Assembly: GCA_944320495.1 (NCBI GenBank)
Contig: CALUHR010000013.1
Span: 64,001 to 128,000 of the forward strand
DNA length: 64,000 nt
Direction: 5' to 3'
From: Candidatus Methanomethylophilaceae archaeon
GTDB lineage: Archaea; Thermoplasmatota; Thermoplasmata; Methanomassiliicoccales; Methanomethylophilaceae
Shown: positions 2,926 through 4,798 of the stretch, one piece after another
Position numbering within the stretch: the first letter of the stretch is position 1
Layout of the letters: every line of letters begins with the position of its first letter
Notes under the pieces: model-generated
Told to the model about the DNA's origin: nothing
The model's database searches: none
The model's input: the letters and a program-made list of their open reading frames with translations, nothing else
Program-made: the position numbers and the translations under genes

Positions 2926-4152
2926 ATGGAGGACTGGATCTACGAGAACCTGGAGACCGCCCGCGCCCTCGCTTCCGAGGGACTGTGCGACAGGTGCCTG
3001 GGCCGCATGTTCGGCAAGGTCGGCACCGGCATGACCAACGACGAGCGCGGACGCATGGTCCGCGAGGCTCTCGCGGAGGAGGGAGACTGCCCTCCCGCAG
3101 TGTCGCCCTGTCCCCTGTGCGAGGACATCTTCGACCTGCTCCCCCGCTTCGCCGAGAACGTGGCGGAGGCGGTGAACCCCATAGAGTCCGACAACTTCCT
3201 CGTCGGCACCAAGGTCGAACCCGAGATCGCCGAGCGCGAGAGGGCCCTGTGGGAGAAGCACCAGCTCCAGAGCCCGGAGGCCATCAAGTCCGAGCTCAAC
3301 CGCGAGATCGGCAAGCTGGCACTCCCCATGATCCACCGCCCGGTGGAGTTCAAGAACCCCCAGGTGGTCGCCCTGGTGGACACCCGCTTCGGCGAGGTCA
3401 AGCTGGACATCGCCCCCCTCTTCATCGCCGGCCGCTACAACAAGTACAGCCGCGAGATCCCCCAGACCATATGGCCCTGCAGGGAGTGCCACGGCAAGGG
3501 ATGTCCCCACTGCCACGGCAAGGGCAAGATGTACGAGACCTCGGTGCAGGAGATCATCGGGGACATCGCCCTGGAGATGGCCGACGGGAAGGAGCACTTC
3601 TTCCACGGCATGGGCCGCGAGGACATCGACGCGCGCATGCTCGGTGACGGGAGGCCCTTCGTCCTGGAGATCTCCCAGCCCAGGAGGAGGTTCATAGACC
3701 TGGACGAGCTCGAGAGGAGGTCCAGCGCAGGCGACATGGCAGCGTTCAACTCCCTGCACTTCGTCCAGCGCGAGGCCGTCGAGAGATACAAGGGTGCCGC
3801 GTCCGACAAGGTCTATCGCGTGCGCGTTAAAGCAGACGGCAAAGTTAATAAAGAGGCAGTAGTTGACGTCGCCTTATCGTTCAAGGACGCCGATATAGAA
3901 CAGAGGACTCCACGCCGTGTCGAGCACAGAAGGGCCGACCTGGTCAGGAAGAGGAGGATCCACTGGGTGACGGCGGACTCCTTCGACGGGGACCGGTTCG
4001 ACCTCGAACTCGAGACCGACTCCGGCACGTACGTGAAGGAGTTCGTGTCCGGGGACGACGGCCGCACTCACCCCAACTTCTCTGAGAGGCTTGGGATCCA
4101 GTGCGTCGTCGAGGCCCTCGACGTATTGGCGATTGACTATCACGAACCACGA
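2926..4152 (+). CDS. pus10: tRNA pseudouridine(54/55) synthase Pus10 (408 aa if CGA at 4150-4152 is the stop)
   Basis: 'LCDRCLGRMF', 'GRYNKYSREIPQT.W', 'FHGMGREDIDARMLG.GRPFVLE', 'SGTYVKEFVSGD.GRT.P', terminal 'LDVLAID'. First in-frame CGA follows four codons after 'AID', 10 nt before the rpl21e ATG. Confidence 0.92.
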
Positions 4153-4162
4153 GGGATTCACA

Positions 4163-4456
4163 ATGCAGGCATCCAGAGGAACAAGGACCAAAACCCGCAA
4201 CCTCCTGAAGAAGAAGCCGAGGGCACGCGGCCTGTCCCCCATCACCAAGGGACTCCAGACCTTCGAGCCCGGCGACAAGGTCAACATCATCATCGACCCC
4301 AGCGTCCACAAGGGCATGCCCTTCTCCAGGTTCCACGGTCTCACCGGCGTCGTCATCGACTCCAGGGGAGAGGCCTACGAGGTCAGCGTCAAGGACGGCA
4401 ACAAGACGAAGATCGTCGTCGCCCGCCCCGAGCACCTCGTCAGGACCATGGAGTGA
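4163..4456 (+). CDS. rpl21e: 50S ribosomal protein L21e
   Basis: 'MQASRGTRTKTR..L.K..R.RG', 'F..GDKV.I.IDPSVHKGMP..RFHG.TG.V', 'K...ARPEHL'. Confidence 0.97.
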   Translation: MQASRGTRTKTRNLLKKKPRARGLSPITKGLQTFEPGDKVNIIIDPSVHKGMPFSRFHGLTGVVIDSRGEAYEVSVKDGNKTKIVVARPEHLVRTME

Positions 4457-4462
4457 GGTCCC

Positions 4463-4789
4463 ATGGAGCAGAGGTACCTCACGGTCGCCGAGGTGGGGGC
4501 GCTCCTCCAGGCCGAATCAGAGGCCAGGGGATACGACTTCATGCTCGCCTCCCAGAAGGCGGCGCTCGACCACGCGCAGAAGACCTGCGCGATTACGAAG
4601 GAGCAGGCGGACGCCATCGTGGCCGCCGCCCTCCAGCTCGACTTCGTGACCGAGCCCGTGGCCGTGAAGATCGCCGACCTGCTCCCCTCCACCCCCGAGG
4701 ACGTGCGCGCCATCTTCGCCAAGGAGAGGGTCGTCCTCGAGAAGGAGCAGATAGACGCCGTCATCGACATCGTCAGCGACAACTCGTGA
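4463..4789 (+). CDS. rpoF: RNA polymerase subunit Rpo4 (RpoF)
   Basis: 'AVKIADLLP.TPEDVRAIFAKER' with conserved synteny rpl21e-rpoF-DUF655-ksgA. Confidence 0.92.
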   Translation: MEQRYLTVAEVGALLQAESEARGYDFMLASQKAALDHAQKTCAITKEQADAIVAAALQLDFVTEPVAVKIADLLPSTPEDVRAIFAKERVVLEKEQIDAVIDIVSDNS

Positions 4790-4798
4790 CGTGATCAA

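Follow-up and report, generated by a model that had tools for sequence, protein, structure and literature searches.

Apart from the case considered here, we know of sense-to-stop changes only from a few organelles, and we know of no NCBI table that has CGA as a stop. In the organelle codes (NCBI tables 2, 22 and 23), AGA and AGG in vertebrate mitochondria, UCA in Scenedesmus mitochondria and UUA in Thraustochytrium mitochondria act as stops. In two archaeal assemblies from hydrothermal vents, CGA is absent from recognisable domains and has been named as a possible stop, and these assemblies read CGG as Trp and lack tRNA(UCG); stop use lay outside what that paper tested (Melnykov 2026, bioRxiv 10.64898/2026.04.02.715157). 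Anticodon stems of only 4 bp have been described in connection with reassignment, in the tRNA-Trp of Blastocrithidia and Condylostoma and in a bacterial survey (PMC13092985). In the literature we found no paper on CGA stops in Methanomethylophilaceae, and the group goes unmentioned in the Codetta paper.

The locus described below resembles the organelle codes in that the codon is absent inside genes and stands at gene ends where relatives use standard stops, but here the codon concerned is CGA, in the chromosome of a free-living archaeon of the gut that retains the cognate tRNA and has this codon in frame in a release factor gene. It differs from the vent archaea in lineage and habitat, and because gene ends, switching between TGA and CGA, and a retained tRNA can be documented. 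With bacterial prfB, the RF2 gene with its in-frame UGA, it shares a release factor gene that contains in frame the codon of its own termination, in this case CGA at codon 78 of aRF1; however, aRF1 needs no frameshift, its codon can be read as Arg by a cognate tRNA, and the feedback is putative. The likeness to the 4-bp-stem tRNAs consists in a conserved unpaired 31-39 position in the tRNA of the changed codon, but there the short stem serves to read a stop as sense, whereas here it accompanies a change from sense to stop and would have only a putative effect on decoding.

The window, that is, the whole stretch of 64,000 nucleotides that was analysed, contains pus10 (tRNA pseudouridine 54/55 synthase; 2926..4152, plus strand), followed on the same strand by rpl21e (ribosomal protein L21e, 4163..4456; Pfam PF01157, 3.1e-34, and NF003303, 2.5e-39) and rpoF (RNA polymerase subunit F/Rpb4, 4463..4789; Pfam PF03874, 5.8e-8, and NF011552, 3.8e-18), both of which end on TGA. 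The pus10 frame opens with ATG at 2926 and meets no canonical stop before the TGA at 4792-4794, which under table 11 amounts to 622 codons. Homology to Pus10 ends well before that point: TIGR01213 matches residues 12-403 (1.3e-143, 401 of 402 model positions), and the Pfam domains Pus10_THUMP_arc and Pus10_C reach residue 404, the latter matched over 232 of its 232 positions. Five codons beyond this last homology (residue 403-404), and after 408 sense codons, codon 409 is a CGA (4150..4152, plus strand), the proposed terminator, in a junction that reads GAC TAT CAC GAA CCA CGA GGG ATT CAC A ATG with the CGA in the pus10 frame. The first-pass annotation had proposed that pus10 lacks a canonical stop and would run 214 extra codons across rpl21e and rpoF, and both points stand: the table-11 tail (4153..4794, plus strand) has exactly 214 codons past the CGA and crosses the two genes in the -1 frame.

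The tail is non-coding in the pus10 frame. The body of pus10 contains no CGA in 408 codons and has a coding score of +0.35 per codon, and the tail contains 17 further in-frame CGAs in about 213-214 codons; its DNA scores -0.73 per codon in the pus10 frame versus +0.47 in the frame of rpl21e and +0.54 in that of rpoF. Its translation would be 26% Arg with a pI of 12, and scans of the read-through ORF with Pfam and NCBIfam returned no match within the tail. The predicted product is a protein of 408 residues and 46 kDa if translation stops at CGA, versus 622 residues and about 71 kDa on read-through; an exact look-up of the two sequences found neither in the protein collection. We considered the length of the open tail as evidence and rejected it: stops occur in the -1 frame of genes here at 10.7 per 1000 codons, an open run of 214 codons has a chance probability of about 0.10, and relatives that bear TGA have similar open runs. 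What lifts this CGA above chance is the orthologous stop position in 49 relatives and the behaviour of CGA at gene ends throughout the genome, not the length of the tail.

Alignment of the junction across relatives, the check that the first-pass annotation had suggested, places TGA and CGA in one column. Among 57 loci of the genus, pus10 ends on TGA in 40, on TAA in nine and on CGA in eight, the last being those of the source species (in two MAGs), G009 and G056, G010 and G043, G047, and G055. On a tree built from pus10, rpl21e and rpoF with the junction excluded, this distribution requires at least five to six T/C switches and at least six changes of state in all, four to five of the latter forced by well-supported branches; a clade of 12 species is split into six with CGA and six with TGA, and sister species share the CGA state. 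In G009 and G056 a 1-nt insertion stands directly after the CGA, indicating that there is no frame constraint downstream, as is expected of a spacer and not of a reading frame. The two genes that follow never end on CGA in the genus loci (rpl21e: TGA 54, TAA 2; rpoF: TGA 52, TAA 1), and the KH-type gene upstream of pus10 does so only in G047 (L035). Within pus10, rpl21e and rpoF there is not a single CGA among 33,681 codons, 2,625 of them for Arg, from 59 genomes. The source organism is a member of Candidatus Methanomethylophilaceae, and the 90%-identity cluster of its L21e includes Ca. Methanoprimaticola sp. MG2.

One further locus, that of G062 (L028), has GGA in place of the stop (CCA GGA GGG ATT AAA ATG), and the length of its spacer brings pus10 into frame with rpl21e; either this MAG contains a sequencing error here, or Pus10 and L21e are predicted to be fused (408+3+98 residues).

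The source genome, a MAG in 14 contigs at 90.6% completeness, has about 1,700 genes, and its 1167 confident ORFs end on TGA (866), CGA (234, or 20%), TAG (36) and TAA (31). To compare codons by what follows them, we selected those that stood in frame behind 40 strongly coding codons, and applied to the 40 codons downstream a codon-usage model in which CGA itself has no weight. The mean score behind CGA (n = 232) is -18.6 and 1% of the sequences are still coding, close to the values after TGA (n = 854; -20.2 and 3%) and far from those after the other Arg codons, where 44-71% are still coding; a model-free test based on GC3 minus GC2 gives the same split. Among 414 CGAs that follow coding sequence, the coding sequence then continues at only seven. 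When ten ORFs of the window were extended through their CGA and scanned with Pfam, eight had a hit, and every domain ended before the CGA. CGA makes up about 16% of gene ends in the clade around the source species, as against about 6% elsewhere in the genus.

Codon-usage scores, GC3 periodicity and the ends of Pfam domains, three independent tests, thus all speak for the earlier suggestion that CGA ends pus10. The sequences show that the proteins of this organism, Pus10 among them, are encoded as far as CGA and no further, and that TGA and CGA stand in for each other at orthologous ends. On these sequence comparisons we regard it as very probable that the CGA at 4150-4152 is where ribosomes finish Pus10, and that CGA is a gene-end signal beside TGA, TAA and TAG in the genus. 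With the same high confidence we hold that CGA has probably left the ordinary set of Arg codons in this genus; if CGA is a gene-end signal, then the change from TGA to CGA at the pus10/rpl21e junction would be one from stop to stop, with the layout of a stop inside the Shine-Dalgarno element kept.

The other way to read the junction is as a plain loss of the stop codon, with CGA decoded as Arg and Pus10 extended by as many as 214 junk residues that are tolerated. Crude table-11 calls seem to favour this, in that they contain 1616 CGAs in 1243 ORFs, as if CGA were an ordinary codon; however, these CGAs lie in the overshoot regions beyond the first CGA, the codon at which the coding signal ends, and we rejected the ordinary-codon reading for that reason. 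A gene for tRNA-Arg(UCG) exists, the -1 frame may be open by chance (P about 0.10), and G062 has GGA, a true sense codon through which pus10 is joined in frame to rpl21e, all of which a stop loss would accommodate, but it would also leave about 234 genes with junk tails. Moreover, the supposed losses are always to CGA, recur, and persist through speciation without compensating stops, and the codon is missing from the bodies of pus10, rpl21e and rpoF in 59 genomes. We therefore consider a plain stop loss very improbable indeed, and return to CGA as a gene-end signal.

The CGA ends can be compared with the TGA ends in further respects. Start overlaps of the form CGATG number 54, and occur at the same or a higher rate than their TGA counterpart; T is the base at +4 after 56% of the CGA ends, these 54 overlaps included. 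Back-up stops show no clear excess after CGA compared with TGA, either within 3 codons (0.12 vs 0.09) or within 10 (0.30 vs 0.23), and this counts against the gene-end reading. A rule by which a weak context (C at +4) would permit read-through was considered and is unsupported, C being found there after 17% of CGA ends versus 18% of TGA ends. The genes that end on CGA have a lower codon adaptation (0.334 vs 0.382 per codon).

Three other CGAs in the source genome have coding signal on both sides, at G000:C8:55685 (plus strand), C8:98215 (minus strand) and C13:194145 (minus strand), one of them in a flavodoxin-like motif (GKTI-R-PFCT); they may be sites of read-through or of Arg, or may separate neighbouring genes that happen to be in frame. 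TAG stands between stop and sense, since coding continues after 15% of 68 in-frame TAGs that follow coding sequence (G000), an intermediate behaviour that fits the use of pyrrolysine in the order Methanomassiliicoccales.

As the inference depends on one base, we asked whether the C at 4150 is real. The source is a MAG of 14 contigs and 90.6% completeness, and this is the one circumstance in favour of a sequencing or assembly error with a true T at 4150. Yet the second MAG of the species (G018) has CGA at the pus10 end, a strain of 98.6% identity in DNA run X1 has the same C, so do assemblies from three RNA libraries, and sister species share the state; the TGA that was to be looked for in reads at 4150-4152 was not found, the contigs from DNA and from RNA libraries all having C. 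The probability of an error is accordingly negligible. The habitat is the gut of chickens and birds.

The RNA contigs also bear on the possibility that the CGA is present in DNA only, and that the mRNA is edited from C to U to give UGA, as in plant organelles. From species to species the site has T or C interchangeably, as editing would allow. The contigs of three metatranscriptome runs, from three separate studies, span the junction, match the window throughout and read C, not U, at 4150, and hence none of them displays C-to-U editing, as consensus sequences at a depth of 3-9 in which carried-over DNA may take part. Furthermore, a tRNA that reads CGA, and a CGA at a conserved Arg of aRF1, are kept in every species, which implies that CGA reaches the ribosome unedited. 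We know of no C-to-U editing of mRNA in archaea, and consider it highly improbable at this site.

The junction retains the layout of its neighbours. Overlaps of the TGAGG type between stop and Shine-Dalgarno element are reportedly found in archaeal operons, where they are said to couple termination to reinitiation. At pus10, as in such overlaps, the last two bases of the stop, here those of the CGA, are the first two of a GAGGG, the Shine-Dalgarno-like core for rpl21e (4151..4155, plus strand). From GAGG at 4151-4154 there are 8 nt to the ATG of rpl21e at 4163, a distance within the 5-10 nt expected of this type of junction. The difference is in the first base of the stop, which is C at pus10, and a coupling of termination to reinitiation is putative here. 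The first-pass annotation had placed the CGA within this element and had likened CGAGGG to the TGAGG-type junctions nearby, with C for T. We find the same arrangement: TGAGGCG at 2914, TGAGGTC at 4454 and TGAGAGG at 1563 are all present in the window, congeners have TGAGGG at the orthologous site, and GAGGG or AGGG is kept at the junction in 59 loci. Among confident ORFs of the source genome, xGAGG is found at 12% of TGA ends and at 12% of CGA ends, and junctions of the form xGAGG-N1-9-ATG/GTG occur at an equal rate (30 of 866 TGA ends versus eight of 234 CGA ends). The 3' end of the 16S rRNA, sought for its anti-Shine-Dalgarno sequence, was not found in the 14-contig assembly. An RNA helix in which the T or C would pair with G was tried and rejected, as the junction folds no better than shuffled sequences (z = +0.71).

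Loss of the cognate tRNA, which might be expected of a sense-to-stop reassignment, is not the case here. The gene for tRNA-Arg(UCG) (G000:C13:413317-413390; L129:101-174) is present in the source genome and, with a match, in 30 of 30 genomes of the genus. With this gene present, decoding of CGA as Arg is possible in principle, and termination may be leaky. In all 30 of these genomes the tRNA has a mismatch at position 31-39 (A.A, C.A or U.C), which leaves this position unpaired. All 12 tRNAs checked from other genera have 31-39 paired, once as a U.G wobble; ten of them have full stems, and the two from genus g20 instead have C.A at 27-43.

The single clear and conserved CGA inside a gene lies in that for the release factor itself. 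Codon 78 of aRF1 (G000:C2:86932-86934, minus strand; L061:1678-1680), stands at a conserved Arg directly behind the NIKS motif, and all 30 genus genomes checked have CGA there; it is the only CGA in the gene, and its context GCT CGA CTN is conserved. Congeneric species, sampled over 253 kb, have no CGA with coding sequence after it other than this codon. In 16 outgroup genomes from six other families of the order, codon 78 is CGC, CGT, CGG, AGA or AGG, and 15 of the 16 have one to four CGAs at other places in the gene; the remaining gene, a partial one, has none. Other genera of the family have CGA rarely inside genes, and many keep a single CGA in aRF1, at codon 25, 11 or 50. The NIKS and YxCxxxF motifs of aRF1 are intact; the genus has 35 fixed positions at which the outgroups differ, several of them beside these two motifs, and some of the lineage substitutions nearby are common to other genera.

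The aRF1 gene of G045 (L065) itself ends on CGA, and those of the other 29 genus genomes on TGA (27) or TAA (two). In the two complete genomes of genus g20 (L118, L119) three genes end on CGA, and about 9,400 aligned codons contain none internally; the habit of ending genes on CGA may reach this sister genus.

How CGA would end translation is a more tentative matter. We lean slightly towards a code with four stops throughout the genus, and with traces in the family, in which aRF1 would read CGA at about 6-20% of gene ends and a weakened tRNA-Arg(UCG) would have the CGA of aRF1 as its main client. In such a scheme aRF1 would recognise CGA in competition with the tRNA, which an anticodon stem of just four base pairs would weaken; the mRNA of aRF1, with its conserved in-frame CGA at a conserved Arg, would be the reason for keeping the tRNA; and codon 78 might restrain aRF1 by feedback, much as the in-frame UGA does in bacterial prfB. 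Ribosomes that leaked past 4150 would meet another in-frame CGA after 38 codons and stop there. As the decoding motifs of aRF1 are canonical, its acceptance of C at the first codon position is putative.

These canonical motifs, along with the conserved mismatch at 31-39, could also be taken to mean that CGA is effectively an unassigned ("hungry") codon, at which ribosomes stall because the tRNA decodes it poorly, and the peptide is released through a rescue route such as aPelota/ABCE1 or slowly by non-cognate action of aRF1. The protein would end at the same place as with a true stop, and only the mechanism would be different. Pelota is present in the genome, and CGA ends are commoner in genes of lower codon adaptation (the difference given above) and never found at rpl21e or rpoF, points that favour such a reading. 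However, about 20% of genes would then need a rescue pathway, and the 54 CGATG overlaps and the CGAGG junctions, at rates like those of TGA or higher, suggest orderly termination and re-initiation. The conserved CGA in aRF1, too, is most simply explained if the level of aRF1 sets the outcome at CGA. We thus regard stalling at an unassigned codon as unlikely, though the most serious of the alternatives considered, and prefer recognition of CGA by aRF1.

If this is true, it would be the first reassignment from sense to stop in a cellular, non-organellar genome; and if CGA ends translation, a code change of the organelle type would exist in a free-living archaeal lineage that is common in animal guts. 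The lineage appears to be in an intermediate state, with the tRNA kept and a release factor gene that carries the codon, and such a state makes the route of codon reassignment directly testable. There would also be a consequence for annotation, as gene callers that use table 11 let about a fifth of the genes run into their neighbours, Pus10 becoming a chimaera of 622 residues across rpl21e and rpoF, and this overshoot would distort the entries of these methanogens in protein databases as well as the pathways assigned to them. As an object for a test the pus10 junction is compact, since it offers one orthologous site with TGA or CGA depending on the species, and a read-out of 46 versus 71 kDa or of the C-terminal peptide.

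Further upstream, pus10 contains an AT-rich patch (3826-3900; 55-61% AT versus 30-45% around it) that includes AAAGTTAATAAAGAGG. Across the genus, its synonymous third positions are unusually conserved (entropy 0.45-0.48 versus about 0.9-1.2), and its amino acids are variable. Some 300 nt before rpl21e, the patch may serve as an internal promoter with BRE/TATA-like sequence or another element that acts at the nucleotide level.
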